From the NCBI GenBank assembly GCA_052055015.1, contig JBQJIT010000007.1: a stretch of DNA of 64,000 nucleotides; one strand, 5' to 3'. This DNA comes from Malassezia furfur. Taxonomy: Eukaryota. Below the pieces are notes generated by a model that saw only the letters and a list, made by a program, of their open reading frames with translations, made no database searches and was not told the DNA's origin. The translations under genes and the position numbers were made by a program. Positions 3,785 to 61,107 of the stretch are shown here, in pieces (position 1 is the first letter of the stretch; the number at the start of each line of letters is the position of its first letter).

Positions 3785-4906
3785 ATGTCTGGCAACAAGA
3801 ACGCAGACGAACTTCTCAAGTGGGGTTTGCAAAATGCCCCGATGGCTAACAATGGCCAGTCGTCCGTCGCGCAAGTCTCGGACGATATTGCCGCGGGGCG
3901 GCGTCCCGATCTTCAAGACCCGGCGCTGTACGAAGCGTTAATGGGCAAAAGCGAGGCGCAGATGATGCAGGAAGAGTTGGGCGTGGCCGTCGATCGCTCG
4001 AGGCCGGAGGCGGACCGCCTTACCGCGCTCGACAACTTTGAAATGCTGGTCGAGCAGGTGGACAATGCGAACAACATGGAGTCGCTACAAATGTGGGCGG
4101 CGTTGCTCAAGCTGCTGCAGTCAAGCGACGAGCCGCAGATTCAGCTGAACGCGGCGTGGATCGTGGGTACGGCGATGCAGAACAACGACAAGGCCCAAGT
4201 TGTGGCGCTTGGACATGGCATCCTGCCAATCCTGCTTTCACTGCTCGAGGCGCCGACACCTGAGCTGCGGAGCAAGGCGATGTATGCCATCTCTTCGCTG
4301 CTCGGACACTACCCCGCGGCCGTCGCCCAGTTTGCCGAAGCAAATGGCTGGGCAAAGTTTGCAGGTGCATTGCAAGACTCGAGCATCGTGGTGCGCCGCA
4401 AGGTGGCCTTCCTACTGAACCAGCTCCTGGTCCAGGACCCGATGGACTCCTCGGAGCCAATGCAAGACGGGCCGCCAGCTCCAGAGACTGCTGTGACGGC
4501 GAAGGACGCCGGCAACAGCCACATGCCCCCCGTTCCCCTGGAAGAAGGGCCAGCGACGAAGCGCGTCAAGGTGCGGCATCCGGACGTGGCCCAAGCGCTG
4601 GTGGAAAGCGGCATCTTTGACGCGCTGCTCACCTCGCTGCTCCCCGGTGCGGCGGGTGCGGCGGCCGAGTGCAATGGGCAGCCGACACGGAATGACGTCG
4701 ACTATGATGAAAAGGCGCTGCAGGTTATCATGACGCTCGTCGACAAGCGCCGACCGACGCTCCCGCTGCCCAAGGACAAGCTCACTGCACTGGTACAGGC
4801 GCTTCAGGGCCCACCCGTGGACGCAAGCGCTGGGGTCGCGACGTTTGCCGAGGAGCTCGGCGTGGACAAGCGGGCATTGGATGCGTTCCTGGCGCACCTT
4901 GCGTAA
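3785..4906 (+). CDS. FES1: Hsp70 nucleotide exchange factor Fes1/HspBP1
   Basis: N-terminal ELLKWGLQNA, the motif ALDNFEMLVEQVDNANNM and ARM repeats (AAWIVGTAMQNN; KAMYAISSL); start taken at MSGNK (3785). Confidence 0.9.
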   Translation: MSGNKNADELLKWGLQNAPMANNGQSSVAQVSDDIAAGRRPDLQDPALYEALMGKSEAQMMQEELGVAVDRSRPEADRLTALDNFEMLVEQVDNANNMESLQMWAALLKLLQSSDEPQIQLNAAWIVGTAMQNNDKAQVVALGHGILPILLSLLEAPTPELRSKAMYAISSLLGHYPAAVAQFAEANGWAKFAGALQDSSIVVRRKVAFLLNQLLVQDPMDSSEPMQDGPPAPETAVTAKDAGNSHMPPVPLEEGPATKRVKVRHPDVAQALVESGIFDALLTSLLPGAAGAAAECNGQPTRNDVDYDEKALQVIMTLVDKRRPTLPLPKDKLTALVQALQGPPVDASAGVATFAEELGVDKRALDAFLAHLA

Positions 4907-52424: not shown

Positions 52425-52474
52425 ACGCCTCGATGCTCGGTGCAGTCCGACTTGTCGTGGGTCTGCATAGAACA

Positions 52475-53263
52475 ATGCTTACCTGGCAACAGACTCCTGA
52501 ACCATCGAATACACTCATGTTCGCCAATCTCCCACACGGATTCTTTGCCTCCGAGGAGCTGGTGGAGCAACTGCTGCACCTGCTGCAGAGCTACGGTCCT
52601 ATGGTAGACTGGACGGCCCTGCCGGCGTTTGGGCGTGGCGTCGCTGTGTTTGAGCGCGCCGACGATGCAGCGCGCGTTAAGTATGCACTTGACCATCTTC
52701 TTCTGCTGTACGAAGACGACCAAGTGCGCGTGCACACGAGCGATACGCCGATCCGAGCGAAAAACCGCGACGAGTACGTCTTCTGTGACTCATTCAGTGT
52801 ATTGCGCGTGTACTTCTGTGTACCGACGCCGCTAACGCTCCTGCCCGATGGCGACTACGTCGTGGCTCGGAGTGCCGAGGCGTATCAGCAGTACTTGGCA
52901 CCACCCGCACCCGAGCGCGAGTTTCTCATCAGCCCGCCCGGCAGTCCACCAGTTGGCTGGGAGCCACGTGAGGAGGACGGGCCAAACAAGACGACGCTGG
53001 CGCAGGACCTGATTGATGCGCTGCAAAAACTGGTGGAGGAACCCCGCACGGACTCGGCGGCGCAGGCCGACGCGGCCCCATCCACCGATCCCGTGGTGGT
53101 TGTGGAGCCGGGGACCGACGCGGCGCGACATCCTGGCCTAGTGGTGCATCATGCTGAGGATACGGGCCTGTTGCCTCCTCCGACGCAACCTATCTCTTCC
53201 ATCAAAGCAGGCGTAGATAGCCTGCACGGGCGGCCGGCACCGACGGCGCGCCCTCCTATGTAA
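52475..53263 (+). CDS. RCN1: Calcipressin (regulator of calcineurin, RCAN)
   Basis: FLISPPGSPPVGWE signature, N-terminal RRM-like region and C-terminal PTARPP; probable in-frame 24-nt intron 52774-52797. Confidence 0.92.
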   Translation: MLTWQQTPEPSNTLMFANLPHGFFASEELVEQLLHLLQSYGPMVDWTALPAFGRGVAVFERADDAARVKYALDHLLLLYEDDQVRVHTSDTPIRAKNRDEYVFCDSFSVLRVYFCVPTPLTLLPDGDYVVARSAEAYQQYLAPPAPEREFLISPPGSPPVGWEPREEDGPNKTTLAQDLIDALQKLVEEPRTDSAAQADAAPSTDPVVVVEPGTDAARHPGLVVHHAEDTGLLPPPTQPISSIKAGVDSLHGRPAPTARPPM

Positions 53264-53267
53264 ATAT

Positions 53268-54185
53268 CTATTCCTTGGACTCCTTGGACGCGACCGCGGG
53301 TGCCGTTGTCTCGGTGTCGGCCGATGGCGCCGCGGGCGTCTCCTTATGCTGTTCCTCGCTGGCCTCGTAGGCCTCAGCGGCGTACATCGGCTCCTGGTTG
53401 TTCTGCACCGGGTGCGTGCGATGGCTCGAGTTCGGGTACGCGGCACGCAGGAAGGCTGTCTCGTCCAAGTCTTCGGCGGCCTCGATGACCTCGTACATAG
53501 CCGAGGCAGCCTCAGGCGCGGGTACCTTGCCAAGCAGCAGGTCCATTGCAGGGATCGGTTGCCCGTAGAACTCGCGGTTGGCATCCTTGCGCTCCATGAG
53601 CGCTGTGCCCTCGAGCGAGATGCCAACGTACAGACCCTTGCTGCGCGAGTAGGAGAACATGGGCGCCATGTGCCCCACCGACATCATCGCGGCGCTACCC
53701 CGGCCGATCGGCCCTGCGGCTGCACTCATGTTGCCGCCAAACGCCATGTTGCCCGACAGCCCAAACGAGCGAACGGCCTCCTCTGTATTCATTACCACCA
53801 CAAACTCGGTCAGGTCTGCCCCGATCTGCCAGCCGAAGCCGACGCCGCCCGTAGCAATGCACGACGGTGCGGACCACGAGCCGTCCGGGAGGCGTGCTGT
53901 CACCACGCCGCTGCCGGCCTTGGCCGACCATCCAAACCCGGCCTTGGCAACCGTGAAGATGGCCAGGCCCTTGGCGCGCAGCAACACGCGCTTCGGGATC
54001 GAGTTCAACACAGTATCGGGGCGTGTGGGATCGGCGAGGAAGCTCCTGAGGATCTTGGCCGCTCGGTTGCACTCGCTCGGGAGGTTGAAGCCGGACTGGA
54101 ACTGAGAGGTGGCATTCTGTGCATACATGTTCGCCTGTTGCCCCGTGCGACGGGCCATCGCCTTGATCTCCTCAAAGCTCGGCAT
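53268..54185 (-). CDS. Ysc84/Lsb3-like SYLF (YAB) domain protein without SH3
   Basis: Motifs ECNRAAKILRSF, AKGLAIFTVAKAGF..S, GSWSAPS, AAGPIGR and SYSRSKGLYVGISLEG. Confidence 0.88.
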   Translation of the reverse strand: MPSFEEIKAMARRTGQQANMYAQNATSQFQSGFNLPSECNRAAKILRSFLADPTRPDTVLNSIPKRVLLRAKGLAIFTVAKAGFGWSAKAGSGVVTARLPDGSWSAPSCIATGGVGFGWQIGADLTEFVVVMNTEEAVRSFGLSGNMAFGGNMSAAAGPIGRGSAAMMSVGHMAPMFSYSRSKGLYVGISLEGTALMERKDANREFYGQPIPAMDLLLGKVPAPEAASAMYEVIEAAEDLDETAFLRAAYPNSSHRTHPVQNNQEPMYAAEAYEASEEQHKETPAAPSADTETTAPAVASKESKE

Positions 54186-54236
54186 GGTGGTAAGTGGGGA
54201 AGTGTCCCCTCCCCCCTCCACAATAACCACGCCGGC

Positions 54237-57200
54237 ATGGCGCGCAGCGGGGCGATGGGCACAGCGCCCGTGCTGCTCATGCTCACGAGCGCGGTGCTGC
54301 TGTGTTACGCGCTGCTTTCGTTTCTGGCACTGCCCCGGCTCCTAGACCTACAGCCGGGGTGCCGTATGGCATACATGCGGCCGTCTTATGTGTCGCACAA
54401 TGCGGCGCTGCGCATGCACTCACGGTCGTCGTCCCCCATGATGCACAAGTACTCGCTGCTCGAGTACCGCGAGGGCGGCGTAAAGCATGGGATCGGACGG
54501 CGCAGTGCTATGCCCGCGCTGTTCATCCCGGGCAACGCGGGCAGCTACGGACAGGTGCGCAGTCTGGCCAGCAGCGGTGCGAACCAATACTACCGGTCGA
54601 ACGTGCCTGCGAGCGGCCCCGGGCGCGACGACCCAACCGACGAATGGAAGGAGGCACCAGGACCCATTGACTGGTACGCACTCGACTTCAACGAGGACTT
54701 TTCCGCGTTCCATGGCCAAACGCTGCGCGACCAGGCGTTTTTCGTAAACGAAGCGATCCACTACCTGCGGTCGCTGTATCCGGGCCAGGACGACCAGATG
54801 CTGCGAGGTGAAGAGAAGAACGTCACAGTCGCGCTCGTCGGACACAGCATGGGCGGTATTGTGGCGCGCCTCACCCAGCGTCTGCCCAACTATGTGCCGC
54901 GCAGCGTCGACACGATCGTGACGCTCTCGACGCCGCACGCTTTCCCCCCCGTGCCCTTTGACCGCTCCGTGGAGCGCGTGTACAATATGGTGAATGACAA
55001 ATGGACGCTCCCGGAAGAGGAGCCGCTGCTGCTGTCGATCGCGGGCGGTGTGTTGGACACGCAGTTGTCGTCGGACGCCTCGTCGCTGAGCCTCGCGCAC
55101 ATCCAGGCCCCTGTGGCGCAGCTGTCGACCTTTACGACGGCGCTGGCGATGTTGTGGAGCAGCGTCGACCATCTTGCTGTGGTGTGGTGCGACCAGCTGC
55201 GGTATAAGATCGCGCGTGGGCTTCTGCTCGACTACAGGTTTTTTGGCAAGGAGTCGGAGCGCCGTGCAGAGCCCCTCGTGCGCATCGAGCGGCGCGAGAT
55301 GTGGCGCAAGCTGCTGGGTGTGTCGAACGATGCGGCGTCGCCCGAAGAGCGGCACATGGAGGCGCAGGTTGCCCAGCAGGGGCCGATGCGCCTGCGAGAT
55401 CTGTCGCCATCCATGGGACGCGACACGGAGGGCAAGGAGGGCGTACTGATGCACCAGCCTGGCGCGGAGCTGCACGCTGTGCTCACCTCGCCGGGCCCCC
55501 GCGCGACGCACGACTGGCGCGTGCAGCCAGACGAGACGCTGTCGTTTGAGTTGCTGACGAACCTGTGCGTCGGCACGAGCGCGAACCGAGGCGCGCCTGT
55601 GCAGCAGGATATCGAGCTGGTGACGCAGGTGTGCTTCCGTTCGATCCTGCCGAGCAACCCCACGCAGCTGAAAAAGGCGTACTGCCAGGTGGTGCTGCCC
55701 AACGCGTACGAGACGCTGCCCGCCTCGCCGCCGCCGCGCGACCCGAGCATCGATTCGGGCCCGTTCCCGAATGCGTCGCTGCTGTACGAGGTGCCAAGCA
55801 CCTCGATCAAGCGCCTGCACTTCAGCGCCGACTACTTGCGCGAGAACCATGTCACGTTCATTCGCCTGGAGCGCAGCCTGAATGCGGCCATGTACAGCGG
55901 CGACCACACGCTGCACCGCCAGACGCTGCTCACCTCGGGCTGGGTCGAGGAGGAAGCCATCCCGCTGCGCGGAGTCCCCTGGCTTGGCCGGCGCGCGTGG
56001 GAACTGCCAGGGACCGATGTGACGAAACTGCTCTCTTTCTTCACCTCAGACGGCCATGGGCCACGCTGGCAGTGGCTCTGGCCGGACGTCGACTCGTCGC
56101 TCGTTGCCTACGACCTTGAACTCGAGCCGGCGCCGTGTGCGCTGCGCTTCAACTATACCATGGCGCCGCGTACTGCGCCCATGCTGCGCGTCTCCAACCG
56201 CGCAACCAGGGACGCACGCACCTACCCATCCCTCGATGTCCTGTCGACCGTCCGCGTGCCTGTCGCGCTGCACGGCAGCGCTCCGTTCATGCCGCGCGCG
56301 GCACGCACGCAGCGCGGCACTTTGCTCGAGCTGTGGGTGCCCGACGACTTCCGCGGCACCGTATTTACCAGCACGTACGGTCGCACATGCCCCCTGCCGT
56401 ACCGGCGCGTGCAGCTGCGCGTCAACTGGCGCAGCAGCGCCGCACTGCTGGTGCTGCGGTACCGCTTCGCGTTGCTCATCTGGCCGGTTGCGGTGCTCGC
56501 CGCGGCACACGCGCTCTTCTTTACGGGGACCCACGCGATGCCAATCGACGCGCTGTGTGCGCTGACGACGCGCCGGACGTTCGGCATGCTCCTCGGCGCC
56601 CCCCTTCTCCTCCAAGTGGTAGCGCGTATCGCCGAGGCGCTGCACCTGCCCGGCCATTGGTACGCGGCAGGGATCGGCACAACCGATGCGCGCTTTGCGC
56701 TGCTGGGCCCCGTGCTGATGCTCGTTGCGTATGGCATGACGCTCGTCGTCGCGCTGCTCACCGAGCTTGGTTTGCACCTCGCATACGTGGGCTTGGCGCG
56801 CTTCGTCCCGCGCTGGGTGTCGAGCTGGGCGGTATCCTCAGCGCTGCCCGAGAAGTCGCTGCCCAGCCGTACGGAGATGGTGCAGTGGGCGACGCAGCGC
56901 CGCACGCTTCTCTCGGCAGGCCTGCTGGTGTCATGCTGGGTGCTGCTGCCGTACCAGGTGCTGATCCTCGCGTGCTTTTTGGTGCACTGCGCGACGCTTC
57001 TCAGCTCGTATATCGCGTGCCAAGAAGCCGAGCACCAGCCGCGGCGCATCGAGGAATGGGAGGCACGCGTTGCCCCGCACGAGACGCAACAGGTGCGCAC
57101 GATTCGCGCGCTCCAGACGCGCTATGCGCAGCACTCCTGGCTGCACCTCTTTCTCGTGTGGATGTTGCCGCTGCACCTCCCTGCGCTCGTCGTGTGGGTG

Positions 57201-58235
57201 CGCAACGTCAACATCGGTGTTCGCATGGGCCTCTCACGCACACAGCACAGCATCGTCGCGAGCCTTGCAGTGCTGGCCATCGTCTATCTCTACGCCAGCA
57301 CCAAGGTCTACGAGCGGCCGCAAAACGAGCAGTACACGCGCGTGACACGCGGCCTGTACTTTGCCCTCTTCCTTGCGTCGCTGGTGTACGGCATCCGCTT
57401 TGCCTACATTCAGTACGAGGTCTTTCAGGTGGTGCTGGCATGGGAGGTCGTGCATCGCCTGTATGCGCTACACACGCGCCCGGCACCGGTGCAGGCCACA
57501 CAGGAGGAGCGCGAGATTTTCGTGCTCGAGCCACTGCACCTGGCCCTGCCCCGTGCATTGCAGGAAGCAGGTACTGTGCCAAACGAGCAGGCCTCTGAGC
57601 CTGTTAGCACCACCCCGATGCCCACGGATGACACCGAGCGGTGCGCACTGCAGGAGCAGCTTGAACAAACTCTGGAAACCTACCTCGCGACGCTCGAGGT
57701 GTACATGGACGTGCGCACGCGCACCGCCGCGGCCCTCGCCGCCGGATTCGTCCAACTCGCGCGCGCCAAGTTTGTGCTGGGTGGTGCATTTGGACAGCGC
57801 GTCAGCCAGGATGCCTACGATGCACGGATGAAGGCGTCGGTGCGGTGGGTTGACGGCCGACTGCAGCGGACGGATCCCTCGGCATCCCCGGCCCAGCTCT
57901 TGGAGTCCGCCGGTGCCAAGGATGAGCGCTCCGCGGGACTGCGGCGCCGCACTGCCAGCAAGGACTTGTCCGGCCAAACGGCCGAAAACGACACCGAAAA
58001 GAGCCAAGACAACCCCGCGCCACACGGCTTCGACGCGTTGTACCAGTTCAGCGGCCTCCCTCCGCCTGCCCTGCGCGCGTCACAGCAACACTTCCGCGAC
58101 GCCCTTGCAATGCTGCTGGATGCACAGGGAATTACAAAACCGGGCGCAGATGAGCACGCCGTGTTGCCACTGCAGCGCCGTCTCCAAGCTCTCGAAGCGC
58201 AAATTACCGAGTATCGCAAGGCTCTACGTACATAG
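54237..58235 (+). CDS. BST1: GPI inositol-deacylase Bst1/PGAP1; the ORF continues in frame into a Vma22/CCDC115-like domain
   Basis: Motifs GCRMAYM, LFIPGNAGSYGQVRS, GHSMGG and DHLAVVWCDQL, then a multi-TM region; no stop codon before 58233. Confidence 0.88.
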   Translation: MARSGAMGTAPVLLMLTSAVLLCYALLSFLALPRLLDLQPGCRMAYMRPSYVSHNAALRMHSRSSSPMMHKYSLLEYREGGVKHGIGRRSAMPALFIPGNAGSYGQVRSLASSGANQYYRSNVPASGPGRDDPTDEWKEAPGPIDWYALDFNEDFSAFHGQTLRDQAFFVNEAIHYLRSLYPGQDDQMLRGEEKNVTVALVGHSMGGIVARLTQRLPNYVPRSVDTIVTLSTPHAFPPVPFDRSVERVYNMVNDKWTLPEEEPLLLSIAGGVLDTQLSSDASSLSLAHIQAPVAQLSTFTTALAMLWSSVDHLAVVWCDQLRYKIARGLLLDYRFFGKESERRAEPLVRIERREMWRKLLGVSNDAASPEERHMEAQVAQQGPMRLRDLSPSMGRDTEGKEGVLMHQPGAELHAVLTSPGPRATHDWRVQPDETLSFELLTNLCVGTSANRGAPVQQDIELVTQVCFRSILPSNPTQLKKAYCQVVLPNAYETLPASPPPRDPSIDSGPFPNASLLYEVPSTSIKRLHFSADYLRENHVTFIRLERSLNAAMYSGDHTLHRQTLLTSGWVEEEAIPLRGVPWLGRRAWELPGTDVTKLLSFFTSDGHGPRWQWLWPDVDSSLVAYDLELEPAPCALRFNYTMAPRTAPMLRVSNRATRDARTYPSLDVLSTVRVPVALHGSAPFMPRAARTQRGTLLELWVPDDFRGTVFTSTYGRTCPLPYRRVQLRVNWRSSAALLVLRYRFALLIWPVAVLAAAHALFFTGTHAMPIDALCALTTRRTFGMLLGAPLLLQVVARIAEALHLPGHWYAAGIGTTDARFALLGPVLMLVAYGMTLVVALLTELGLHLAYVGLARFVPRWVSSWAVSSALPEKSLPSRTEMVQWATQRRTLLSAGLLVSCWVLLPYQVLILACFLVHCATLLSSYIACQEAEHQPRRIEEWEARVAPHETQQVRTIRALQTRYAQHSWLHLFLVWMLPLHLPALVVWVRNVNIGVRMGLSRTQHSIVASLAVLAIVYLYASTKVYERPQNEQYTRVTRGLYFALFLASLVYGIRFAYIQYEVFQVVLAWEVVHRLYALHTRPAPVQATQEEREIFVLEPLHLALPRALQEAGTVPNEQASEPVSTTPMPTDDTERCALQEQLEQTLETYLATLEVYMDVRTRTAAALAAGFVQLARAKFVLGGAFGQRVSQDAYDARMKASVRWVDGRLQRTDPSASPAQLLESAGAKDERSAGLRRRTASKDLSGQTAENDTEKSQDNPAPHGFDALYQFSGLPPPALRASQQHFRDALAMLLDAQGITKPGADEHAVLPLQRRLQALEAQITEYRKALRT
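57618..58235 (+). CDS. V-ATPase assembly factor Vma22/CCDC115-like (fused domain or separately initiated gene)
   Basis: From ATG 57618: YLATLEVY...AGFVQLARAKF...YDARMKA...ALYQFSGLPPPALRASQQHF plus a terminal coiled coil, matching the recalled CCDC115 pattern. Confidence 0.78.
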   Translation: MPTDDTERCALQEQLEQTLETYLATLEVYMDVRTRTAAALAAGFVQLARAKFVLGGAFGQRVSQDAYDARMKASVRWVDGRLQRTDPSASPAQLLESAGAKDERSAGLRRRTASKDLSGQTAENDTEKSQDNPAPHGFDALYQFSGLPPPALRASQQHFRDALAMLLDAQGITKPGADEHAVLPLQRRLQALEAQITEYRKALRT

Positions 58236-58253: not shown

Positions 58254-58691
58254 TTACTCGTCCGTCTTGCGCATCTTGTGCGGGTCGGCCTTTTCTTCTT
58301 CATCTTCGTCATCATCATCGTCCTCATCGTCGTCCTCGTCGTCCTCATCAACTTTCCGCTTGTGGCCATGCTCGCTGCGTCAATCGAAACACGTACGCTT
58401 CGGCCTCATCGTCTTCGTCGTCGTCGTCCTCTTCGTCCTCTTCATCTTCGTCCTCTTCCTCTTCGTCCTCCTCATCATCGGTCTCCTCTTCCACCTAGGT
58501 CAGAGTAGCACACGTACGAAATCCTCGTCTTCCTCCTCGTTGTACTCATCCTCCTCGTCTTCCTCGTTGGTGGGCTGCTCGTCCGTCGCACGCGCTTTTC
58601 CAGACTTCACCTCCGAGACGGTCGTCTCATTCTCAGGGACTTCCGTCGATGATGCAGCAGCTTTGCCTTTCTCAACGGGATCCGCGCTCAT
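58254..58691 (-). CDS. Small, highly acidic (D/E-rich) protein with basic NLS-like patches
   Basis: Three exons joined by 23-nt (58517-58495) and 22-nt (58396-58375) introns; KRK and KMRK patches; stop at 58256-58254. Confidence 0.72.
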
Positions 58692-59155
58692 GTTGGGCAA
58701 TCGAGTACGGGAGTATGCGCTGCACCACCCGATCGACGCGCTTGGGTCCGTGCGGGCTTGCTTACATACGCACATTCTCGTGCTCGAGTCGATAGGGAGA
58801 GTGGGGTGGGGCGCGAGTGAATAGGTCCAACGCTCTCGTAATGGCAGCACGCAAGGGCTCATCCTTCTTGTGTTCGACATAGAACACTGTGCATCGATTG
58901 ACTGTGAACGCTTGCCGAATGATGTCATGGCCCTTTACCGCACACCGACCAGGCTTGTCTCTCACGCACCAGCCACCGAGTCGCCCTAATCTCCCACTAT
59001 GATCGTGGCCCACTGCCAACAACACCATTCAAGCTCGTAGATCGCATTAGCACTTCAGCCGGATTTGTACCATAGTGCCAGCGCTTTGGTCGTCGACTTT
59101 CCTCGCCAAGCTATTACCAGCTGAGCTCCACTGTGGAAATTTGGTCTAATTTTGG

Positions 59156-61107
59156 CTACTCCGACTTTTGCCCTTCGCGGTACTGGGTCAGTCATACAAC
59201 GCACCTTGGAGAACTTGGAGAGAAGATAGCGAATTGAGCGTGTGACACCAGCCGTAAACAAGCCTTTGAGCGACTGAATCTCTGCAGGCTTTTTCACCGT
59301 CGTAGCAATGAGCTCCATCAGCACCTCTTTGAAATTGTCCTGTTGCACGACTGCGAGCCAAAACCGCGTAATGAGCGGTGGCAGCTGGTCCTCGTTCGAG
59401 GTAGCCCCTGATGCAAGGTTTTCAATCTTGGCTTCTTCTTCACTCAAATCGTGGCTCTGAGGAAGTGTCTGCGGGGTCGTTGCGCTTCGATCAAACGCTT
59501 CCACTCCCATTTCAGCCAGCTCTTTAAACAAGGGGTGCTCCGACGGCGTCGAAAGGTAGTGCTTGATGATGCGCTTGCGAAGGGTCTTGGGAAGGTTGGA
59601 TGCGATGGAGGCGCGCATGCTGGGCGCGACGTTTTGCTGGGTCAATGCAGACTGCGTACCTTAAACTGGAGCCATTCCTTGTCCGGATTTGATTCCACCG
59701 TCACGAATCGGAAGCGCGTAATCAAATCCGCACACATGAAACGGAACCAAGTGTGCTGGTTTTCCACAATGTTGCGGATCTTGTTCTTGTTCTCACCACC
59801 CGGAACACGCATGCGGAAGTCGCCCATGTAACTCAGCGATGCCATTTTGGTGTACAGCTCTCGCTCACTGAAGCGCTCGGGCAGCAGCAGAAACGACACA
59901 CGCAGAGCAGACGCCAAGTTGGCCTGTTCCGCGAGCGGCACACGACCTTCTGTGGAGTCAAACAGAGTCGCGACCGGTTTCTGCATACGCCCGCTCAGGT
60001 ACAGGCTGTCCCACTGGAGGAGATCCTTGCACATCCGATCCACAGACACGACACCGTACTTAACAATCTGCGTGAGGCCTTGCAACATACCTTGTCTTCC
60101 ACCTTCACATAGGGGATGTACCACACACCGGCCCCCATGTTTTGCACCCGCCGAAGCACCCACCACGGCGCCACACGTACCCACCATGGATAGTGCGAGG
60201 GGTTGTTGATTATATTCCGGCTGTGCCAATGCACAGGATTCTGCACAGAAATGACCATGTCGATCATGGGCGGCGTTCCGTTCGGCTGACGCTTGGCCGT
60301 CGCGGTCTGGCTGAACACACCCGAACCATAGGCAAATGCATGCAAAAATTGCGGTAGATTCATCAAGTTGAGCAAGTGCAAAAGCTTTTGGCGGTGGTGT
60401 GCCTCGGATTTGGTGAGGCGATCAATGTGAGGCACCGTCGTCGGCAGAACAAACGATGCGGGGTATCGATTGAAGCCCCGCCTCCGAGCTGCAGCATCAT
60501 TCTCTTGGTCTGCTTCGCGCTCCGCCAGCGCATCCTCGCGGAAATCGTCGCGCATTTTGTCTTGGTCACTTTCGCCGCTCTTCTCGTAGTCGGCAGGGTT
60601 GTATCCACGCTTCTCAGCTGCGGCCAGGTCTTTTGCATCGGCTTCGTATTCAGCGGCTGCATCCTGTTGAAAGTCTTTGCGAACAGCCTCCTCACTGGGA
60701 CGCTTCTTGTAGTCATCTGGTTTGTACCCTCGTCGTTCCGCGGCGTCGACGTTCTGTGCATCGGCCACGCGCTCCGCCGAAGCTTCCTCACGGAAGGTTA
60801 GTCGCTCGTTGAGCTCGTCGCCGTCCTGAGAATTGTACTTGGAGGGATCAAACCCCCGTTTCTCGGCCTCCTTTTCGTCCTTGGCATCGGCCTCACGCTC
60901 GGCCAAGCCGTCCTCGCGGAACTGCTGCCGAGCGTGTCCGGACTTATTCGGCAGCACGGATGAGGAGGTCAGCAGTCGGTGCGCCGCCCAGCAAGAAGGT
61001 GCTAGGACTCGCGCATGACTTCCATGGATCCCAGGTGCTCGTGCCCAAGCATGGCTACGGGTTGCGGAGCTGACCGCCCGCATGCATTGCACTGTTGCCC
61101 ACGTCAT
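59156..61107 (-). CDS. TAM41: Mitochondrial phosphatidate cytidylyltransferase Tam41/Mmp37
   Basis: Motifs AFAYGSGVFSQ, MIDM, KYGVVS, LYLSGRMQKPV, LSYMGDFRM and ENKNKIRNIV; introns 60090-60068, 59659-59637 and 59204-59183. Confidence 0.92.
60461..60921 (-). repeat. Four tandem 41-43-aa protein repeats in the TAM41 N-terminal region
   Basis: Units start at 60921, 60795, 60672 and 60543; consensus F[RQ][EQ][DE]xxAExxADxx[DN]xxxAx[KR]RG[FY]. Confidence 0.9.

Follow-up and report, generated by a model that had tools for sequence, protein, structure and literature searches.

Bst1/PGAP1 and Vma22/CCDC115 in one reading frame: a probable, conserved translational fusion in Malassezia

INTRODUCTION

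Bst1/PGAP1, the glycosylphosphatidylinositol (GPI) inositol deacylase, and Vma22/CCDC115 are both well-studied proteins of the endoplasmic reticulum (ER) with human disease homologues (PGAP1 and CCDC115). To our knowledge, no link between the two has been described. The solved PGAP1 has ten membrane helices, the first of which anchors and leads into a lipase domain at the lumenal face, and its authors fused a fluorescent protein to its C-terminus (PMC10761859). Yeast Vma22p is described as soluble and as the obligate partner of the membrane protein Vma12p in a heterodimer. It occupies the place of V1 subunit D on V0 subunit d and leaves once V0 is complete; its fold has two strands and a disordered loop of 35 residues in addition to a helical pair, and the same article names CCDC115 as a glycosylation-disorder gene in human (PMC9963935). 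In the present study, we analyzed a 64,000-nucleotide stretch of Malassezia furfur DNA (contig JBQJIT010000007.1 of assembly GCA_052055015.1; hereafter, the window), in which one gene on the plus strand encodes Bst1/PGAP1 and Vma22/CCDC115 in succession. It is very probable that this gene is a genuine translational fusion, anciently fixed, with one mRNA and one primary product joining Bst1/PGAP1 to a complete Vma22/CCDC115 domain.

A literature search found no paper linking Vma22 with Malassezia, with a Bst1 fusion, or with GPI inositol deacylase, and among the matches listed, PGAP1 and CCDC115 occurred together only in two human gene-panel papers. None of the papers listed for Vma22 in Basidiomycota, Cryptococcus, or Ustilago contained the name Vma22. 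The Bst1-Vma22 join is real and conserved, apparently undescribed, and built of ordinary parts.

RESULTS

Domain organization of the fused product

The open reading frame (ORF) listing of the window contains a single stop-free frame from 53346 to 58235 on the plus strand, and translation from the ATG at 54237 gives 1332 residues, followed by TAG at 58233-58235. The protein sequences P0003 (from Malassezia brasiliensis) and P0004 begin at the equivalent of this ATG, with MARSGAMGTAP. In addition to the two PGAP1 domains listed in Table 1, the product carries the Vma22_CCDC115 domain (PF21730) at residues 1144-1288, with 55.7 bits in the whole product (cut-off 28). Taken by itself from the ATG at 57618 (residue 1128 of the fused frame), the tail of 205 residues matches the same family with 60.8 bits and an E value of 2.5e-16. 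A first-pass annotation of this DNA had described a Bst1 frame that runs into the ATG at 57618 without a stop, had placed the joined gene at 54237-58235, and had proposed a profile search of 57618-58235 against Vma22_CCDC115. The ORF listing and the translation bear out the uninterrupted frame, the coordinates and content agree with three Pfam domains in one product, and the tail matches the profile with the score given above.

Chance read-through is not the real question here: if Bst1 were a gene by itself, it would have to end in a stop codon, and none is present; the conservation of the join gives the answer instead. The same join is conserved in relatives, and chance read-through was rejected.

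Conservation of the join in proteins

Proteins of 732-2331 amino acids were searched with the last 243 residues of the product, which returned six matches of 1225-1350 amino acids; all six carry PF07819, PF25140, and PF21730. The whole-protein identities of the six relatives to the window protein are 91, 90, 61, 47, 47, and 48%, and the named fused relatives are M. brasiliensis (P0003, 1332 amino acids), M. equina (P0006), and M. nana (P0008). By these identities, the window comes from a Malassezia close to M. brasiliensis. Profile-based searching of longer proteins gave seven matches, again all with the three domains, and added P0158, P0159, and P0160.

When the 205-residue tail was searched exhaustively with phmmer against 1.84 billion representatives, 184 matches were obtained, the four best of which are proteins of 1170-1340 amino acids that are matched at their C-terminus. 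The only other rows above 40% identity are P0013, P0028, and P0051 (109-143 amino acids) and four weak short-stretch rows (P0066, P0091, P0105, and P0110; E values of 1.4e-6 to 4.8e-5); no full-length stand-alone Vma22 relative above 40% identity was found in this exhaustive search. A word-based search likewise found no stand-alone Vma22 of 112-359 amino acids, but it is limited by its words, and the exhaustive phmmer search is the better test.

Pfam domains were assigned in a sample of 28 of the 150 listed phmmer matches, i.e., the 21 longest (at least 460 amino acids) and 7 of approximately 300-380 amino acids with an N-terminal extension. Full-length proteins with PGAP1 and Vma22 account for 12 of the sample, and 6 more are fragments with PGAP1_TMD and Vma22 that span the join. 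P0156 carries PGAP1 and PGAP1_TMD, with a Vma22 match weaker than the cut of 1e-5. Vma22 was the only domain in six sequences, four of which have N-termini that align with the last PGAP1 helix. The remaining three comprise two other joins (to Rgp1 and to A_deamin) and one false match, a PKD-repeat protein. In the nearest ESM Atlas cluster, which has 220 members, PGAP1, PGAP1_TMD, and Vma22 are present in 100%, 99%, and 77%, respectively. The label "commonest Zoopagomycota" on this best cluster rests on three recorded members and is to be read as a lead, not as a range. Public records name the fused proteins only "GPI inositol deacylase," with precomputed Pfam domain matches present.

Conservation of the join at the DNA level

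A metagenome scan gave three loci, which are designated L001, L002, and L003. L001 and L002 lie on separate contigs, differ in 2 of 3795 bases over the gene, and represent a 47%-identical lineage; each has an uninterrupted fused frame of 1264 codons. L003, with 30% identity, comes from a much more distant organism, and in it one frame runs from the PGAP1 lipase through the membrane domain and the linker into the first Vma22 helices. The first-pass annotation had suggested a check of related species for a stop codon at the syntenic locus; the frame is uninterrupted in L001 and L002, and L003 reads through the join. Of the three explanations that the annotation offered, a true fusion is supported by the three-domain protein, which all recovered close relatives and many distant sequences possess, as well as by the DNA of two further lineages.

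One genome alone could not exclude an assembly or sequencing error that lost the Bst1 stop or shifted the frame in the linker, an explanation that has no specific support. Because the same continuous frame recurs in other assemblies and lineages, i.e., in P0003, P0004, L001, L002, L003, and 12 further full-length fusions, such an error is excluded in practice.

Local synteny upstream of the fusion is conserved in the L002 lineage. Calcipressin-like and Ysc84-like ORFs lie upstream of the fusion in L001 and L002 in the same order as in the window, and in L002 (1432-3295) also in the same orientation, as matched by eye. The corresponding genes in the window, which lie upstream of the fusion, are a calcipressin gene at 52433-53260 on the plus strand and a Ysc84-like gene at 53271-54185 on the minus strand.

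Linker between the two halves

The first-pass annotation had given the linker as EQASEPVSTTP. A joining linker does exist, but this string is not the whole of it, and in the AlphaFold2 model approximately 48 residues (1081-1128) separate the two halves. The confidence of the model is low in this region, where block means of the predicted local distance difference test (pLDDT) are 48-68 (model residues 101-150). The first half of the linker is conserved and the second half, which holds positions 57571-57590, is fast-evolving. In the P-x-H-x-A-x-P motif, Pro1099, His1101, Ala1103, and Pro1105 are invariant in all seven Malassezia-type sequences. Similar H-x-h-x-h-P strings, often followed by L-P-x-S-h-x-A-S, were recognized by eye in distant fused sequences, and the motif could be a docking site or a structural element. 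In the second half, an 18-residue insertion is found in P0004 and deletions are found in the M. nana group, and the frame is always kept.

The junction span, which begins where the last PGAP1 helix ends and runs to the YL anchor within the first helix of Vma22, was compared in 33 fused sequences. It is 67 residues in the window and ranges from 13 to 129 residues, with the frame never lost, and Met is absent from the whole span in 12 of the 33. The base pattern of the linker is coding-like (G+C of 0.77, 0.46, and 0.71 at codon positions 1, 2, and 3, respectively), which is weak evidence.

These data bear on a different reading, in which most functional Vma22 is a separate protein of approximately 205 residues that starts at the ATG at 57618, by an internal promoter or start site or by internal initiation, and the fusion is minor or incidental. 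The first predicted Vma22 helix begins exactly one residue after this ATG, M. brasiliensis (P0003) has a Met two residues after the Met1128 column, and six rows inside the fused clade resemble stand-alone Vma22 proteins that start near the first helix. On the other hand, the Met1128 column holds Met in one of seven aligned sequences, i.e., only in the window, and a Met lies within two residues in two of the seven. P0004 and P0005 have no Met in the Met1128 region, and in P0006, P0007, and P0008 this stretch is deleted and no Met precedes the conserved YL..LE.Y helix. Because of this column and the 12 Met-free junctions, an internal start cannot be the general mechanism. Moreover, the linker motif is conserved, and the two frames stay in phase through indels that range from a 10-residue deletion to an 18-residue insertion, although nothing would keep uncoupled frames in phase. 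A predominantly separate Vma22 is therefore improbable.

The linker might also be cut after translation, so that a protease acting on the disordered stretch would release free Vma22 into the cytosol. The predicted disorder, the fast evolution of the second half, and the description of yeast Vma22p as a soluble protein bound to Vma12p (PMC9963935) agree with such processing. No cleavage motif was identified in the linker, and the conserved P-x-H-x-A-x-P motif could equally serve for docking or structure; we consider later cleavage very improbable.

Splice-switch question

Introns of this genome are extremely short. The Tam41/Mmp37 gene at 59058-61107 on the minus strand lies in three frames with abutting Pfam matches at profile positions 9-95, 94-218, and 238-322, and its two introns are listed in Table 1. 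In a scan of the window for introns that join ORFs, 52 of 1127 GT..AG candidates have a 3' end of the form YTNAY-N(1-8)-YAG. Approximately 14 of these 52, which are 22-33 nucleotides long and also begin with GT[AG]NG[TC], were picked by eye, and this choice is partly circular. The 5' ends of the consensus-like introns are GTATGT, GTACGT, GTACGC, GTAAGT, and GTGCGT. The mean intron length in the curated annotation of M. sympodialis is given as 30 bp (PMC5389616, Table 2).

The first-pass annotation had raised the possibility that the segment GTACTG...GAGCAG at 57571-57590 is an intron, and the string does stand at that position. Its removal would shift the frame so that Bst1 ends at a TGA 19 nucleotides before the Vma22 ATG, and two proteins would result. 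The segment starts with GT and ends with CAG, and very short introns such as those of Tam41 and M. sympodialis are in keeping with the idea. However, its GTACTG start has no G at +5, CAAAC stands in place of the YTNAY branch motif, and its 20 nucleotides are fewer than in any consensus-like intron seen. The ORF holds 236 GT..AG segments of 18-40 nucleotides, and this segment belongs to a set of 26 whose removal would change the frame and bring a stop within 10 codons. In addition, the stretch is deleted in P0006, P0007, P0008, and P0158, all of which are still fused, and a splice switch would leave the conservation of the frame across the join unexplained. On these grounds the proposed switch is scarcely credible.

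Structure of the Bst1/PGAP1 half

Residues 31-333 of the fused product align to the solved PGAP1 chain 8k9q_A of Chaetomium thermophilum with an E value of 1.6e-66. The GHSMGG serine-hydrolase motif aligns to that of 8k9q_A, and His203, Ser204, Met205, Gly206, and Gly207 are invariant in all seven aligned sequences. The downstream pair Asp311-His312 is also invariant in the seven and aligns to the same residues of 8k9q_A; with a chain numbering offset of approximately 2, its histidine would be the catalytic His443 of the PGAP1 paper. Residues 616-1072 align to 8k9q_A 713-1147 and end in the last aligned helix of the solved chain. The AlphaFold2 model, which covered residues 984-1332 with a mean pLDDT of 77, has four membrane-domain helices, then the low-confidence linker, and then the Vma22 part. 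Two of its helices are at 1031-1051 and 1056-1080, and the last membrane helix ends at approximately residue 1080.

By homology, the lipase domain of the window protein is expected to be lumenal. Because the solved PGAP1 has ten membrane helices and a lumenal lipase domain, the tail would face the cytosol; i.e., with an even helix count it would emerge on the same side as the N-terminus.

Structure of the Vma22/CCDC115 half

A profile made from natural junction fragments (profile A2) matches yeast Vma22p (8eas_A) over residues 6-180 of 181 with an E value of 6.8e-14, and the same profile matches the last helix of the solved PGAP1 (8k9r, 1117-1153) with an E value of 4e-4. In the model, the Vma22 part begins with a long helix (1129-1182), over most of which the pLDDT blocks average approximately 96, followed by strands at 1201-1205 and 1208-1212, a disordered loop at approximately 1224-1266, and C-terminal helices at 1277-1331. 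The motifs YDARM, LRRR, and FQFSGLPPP are conserved among relatives. With the GHSMGG and Asp-His residues also conserved, both halves look functional as judged from these motifs.

Vma22p is a separate polypeptide, and no stop lies between the Vma22 part and Bst1 in the window; we therefore class the tail as a Vma22 domain rather than as the canonical free protein. The first-pass statement that the two are normally separate genes holds for yeast, where the solved Vma22p is a 181-residue chain, but not for the clade of the window.

Origin of the fusion

A quick maximum-likelihood tree of the Vma22 domain was made from 154 rows. It excludes P0029, P0105, and P0002, which were set aside in advance, and 3 rows in which fewer than 80 columns were filled. 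The fused or unfused label requires at least seven changes on this tree. One split, with a Shimodaira-Hasegawa-like approximate likelihood ratio test (SH-aLRT) value of 86, places 31 of the 32 rows labelled fused on one side together with 9 others, and P0012 lies outside the split. The tree fits one old fusion followed by some later fissions or mis-modelled genes, as far as a short domain with weak support in a quick tree can indicate.

Features of the locus and its surroundings

The features of the fused gene are collected in Table 1, together with the introns used for comparison.

Table 1. Coordinates in the window of the fused gene, its parts, and two introns of the Tam41 gene
Feature	Position	Strand	Basis or remark
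Whole fused gene	54237..58235	+	Single exon, 1332 codons and TAG stop; collinear with the 1332-residue M. brasiliensis P0003, 91% identity
N-terminal hydrophobic segment, residues 4-38	54246..54350	+	Hydropathy scan; counterpart of PGAP1 membrane helix 1
PGAP1 lipase (alpha/beta hydrolase) domain, residues 91-330	54507..55226	+	Pfam PF07819, 224.6 bits (cut-off 24.3)
GHSMGG serine-hydrolase motif, residues 202-207	54840..54857	+	Aligns to GHSMGG of 8k9q_A
PGAP1 transmembrane domain, residues 813-1072	56673..57452	+	Pfam PF25140 (PGAP1_TMD), 78.5 bits (cut-off 25.3), profile position 321 of 324 reached
Linker, residues 1081-1128	57477..57620	+	Between last membrane helix and first Vma22 helix in model
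Conserved linker motif P-x-H-x-A-x-P (PLHLALP), residues 1099-1105	57531..57551	+	Alignment of seven sequences
In-frame ATG (Met1128)	57618..57620	+	One residue before first predicted Vma22 helix; not conserved
Vma22/CCDC115 part, residues 1129-1332	57621..58232	+	Pfam PF21730, profile match to 8eas_A, and AlphaFold2 model
Tam41 intron, 23 nt	60090-60068	-	GTATGT..CTCAC..CAG
Tam41 intron, 23 nt	59659-59637	-	GTACGC..TTGAC..CAG

The G+C content of the window is 60.5%, and stops make up only approximately 2% of codons in any plus-strand frame. The frame of the fusion is also open for 297 codons 5' of its ATG (53346-54236, plus strand), antisense to the Ysc84-family gene (53271-54185, minus strand). 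This open stretch is an effect of the 60% G+C, is noncoding on the plus strand, and lies outside the gene; it illustrates how easily long false ORFs arise at such a composition. Downstream, a convergent gene on the minus strand (58255-58930) encodes long acidic (Glu/Asp) repeats from runs of the GAA/GAC type, and its apparent end is approximately 20-30 nucleotides from the stop of the fusion. It contains a consensus-like 22-nucleotide intron candidate at 58375-58396, and a Pfam scan of the 142-residue ORF at 58503-58928 in this region gave no match.

DISCUSSION

Evidence against a single fused product

Several points weigh against the fusion as set out above, or against parts of it. The single polypeptide is deduced from sequence, and predicted proteins in public databases are no proof of translation. 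Spliced stops could, in principle, be concealed in NCBI models, though P0003 is collinear with the uninterrupted frame of the window. In L003, one frame change occurs at approximately 4080-4130, in a low-complexity Vma22 loop and in a stretch without GT, and this could be a contig error or a real frameshift. The in-frame ATG, which stands right at the start of the Vma22 helix, and the nearby Met of M. brasiliensis belong here as well, and a separate short Vma22 product may be made in the sub-clade of the window and M. brasiliensis. On the fused side of the Vma22 tree, nine rows are not labelled fused. Two of them are pieces of fusions, i.e., P0098, which has a membrane-helix tail, and P0033, which starts inside the linker. 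Six look stand-alone and P0116 is a Vma22-Rgp1 join; the stand-alone rows are either later fissions or gene models that start at internal Met residues. As for the structure, the Foldseek search of the model against the PDB ranked 8eas_A first and V-ATPase subunit D chains next, with E values of 0.28 or worse, and gave no match at an E value of 0.001 or less. A crude hydropathy scan gave eight hydrophobic segments, two of them long enough for two helices, against the ten helices of the solved PGAP1, and the cytosolic side of the tail rests on homology with that protein.

Proposed arrangement and its implications

The genuine fusion remains very probable with these points included, and the following arrangement is proposed for it. 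The ER-resident GPI inositol deacylase would be joined to Vma22 through a flexible linker of approximately 48 residues, and the chain would leave the last membrane helix on the cytosolic side, where Vma22 acts. Yeast Vma22p is described as working on that side, on V0 subunit d, where it prevents premature binding of V1 (PMC9963935). Because the topology of PGAP1 puts the tail in the cytosol and Vma22p acts there, the fusion would keep Vma22 at the ER membrane, on its cytosolic face, at all times, anchored by an ER-resident enzyme with which it would be produced in a 1:1 ratio.

As in a Rosetta stone fusion, Bst1 might take over or share the anchor role of Vma12 in this fungal clade, such that V0 assembly and its release checkpoint would be tied to the enzyme that licenses GPI-anchored proteins to leave the ER, with the P-x-H-x-A-x-P motif as part of the coupling; we regard this link as a tentative idea and rather unlikely. 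A neutral join of two ER residents is plausible. If the functional link were true, a connection between Bst1/PGAP1 and V-ATPase assembly would have gone unnoticed where the genes are separate, including the human glycosylation disorders of PGAP1 and of CCDC115/TMEM199. If the join is merely a neutral one of two ER-resident neighbors, it is a minor annotation point.

A fusion conserved throughout a large clade would imply that a permanent tether to a membrane enzyme of the ER leaves Vma22 able to work, which bears on its release from the finished V0. It would also lend independent support to a cytosolic C-terminus of Bst1/PGAP1, and it offers a hypothesis that is cheap to test, namely that GPI-anchor remodelling and V-ATPase assembly are coupled. 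Because the records say only "GPI inositol deacylase," Vma22 is overlooked by name, and a name-based search in these genomes would wrongly score it as missing.

Comparison with known systems

The Bst1 half shares with Bst1p of Saccharomyces cerevisiae, human PGAP1, and the C. thermophilum structures (8K9Q, 8K9R, and 8K9T) the anchor helix, the GHSMGG lipase domain, lumenal in those proteins, and a multi-helix membrane domain. The alignment to the solved PGAP1 reaches chain residue 1147, whereas the window protein carries approximately 250 extra residues, which comprise the linker and the whole Vma22 domain. The tail belongs to the same Pfam family as yeast Vma22p (PDB 8EAS and 8EAT, chain A) and human CCDC115. 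The model predicts a long helical pair and two short strands followed by a disordered loop, as described for Vma22p (PMC9963935), but the Foldseek match of the fold to 8eas_A is weak (E value of 0.28). Vma22p is soluble, is a protein by itself, and depends on Vma12p to reach the membrane, whereas the domain in the window would be tied covalently to a polytopic ER enzyme.

Two other sequences also have a Vma22 domain inside a longer protein: in P0116 it is joined to a C-terminal part of Rgp1, and in P0144 it follows an adenosine-deaminase/editase domain (A_deamin). Each of these joins is a single row that could be a merged gene model, whereas dozens of divergent sequences, as well as DNA, show the Bst1 join. 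A parallel in one respect is the Vma12p-Vma22p assembly complex (TMEM199-CCDC115 in human), in which a membrane protein likewise holds Vma22 at the cytosolic face of the ER. In the window, the anchor would be Bst1, which is unrelated to Vma12p, and the connection would be a peptide bond in place of a heterodimer.

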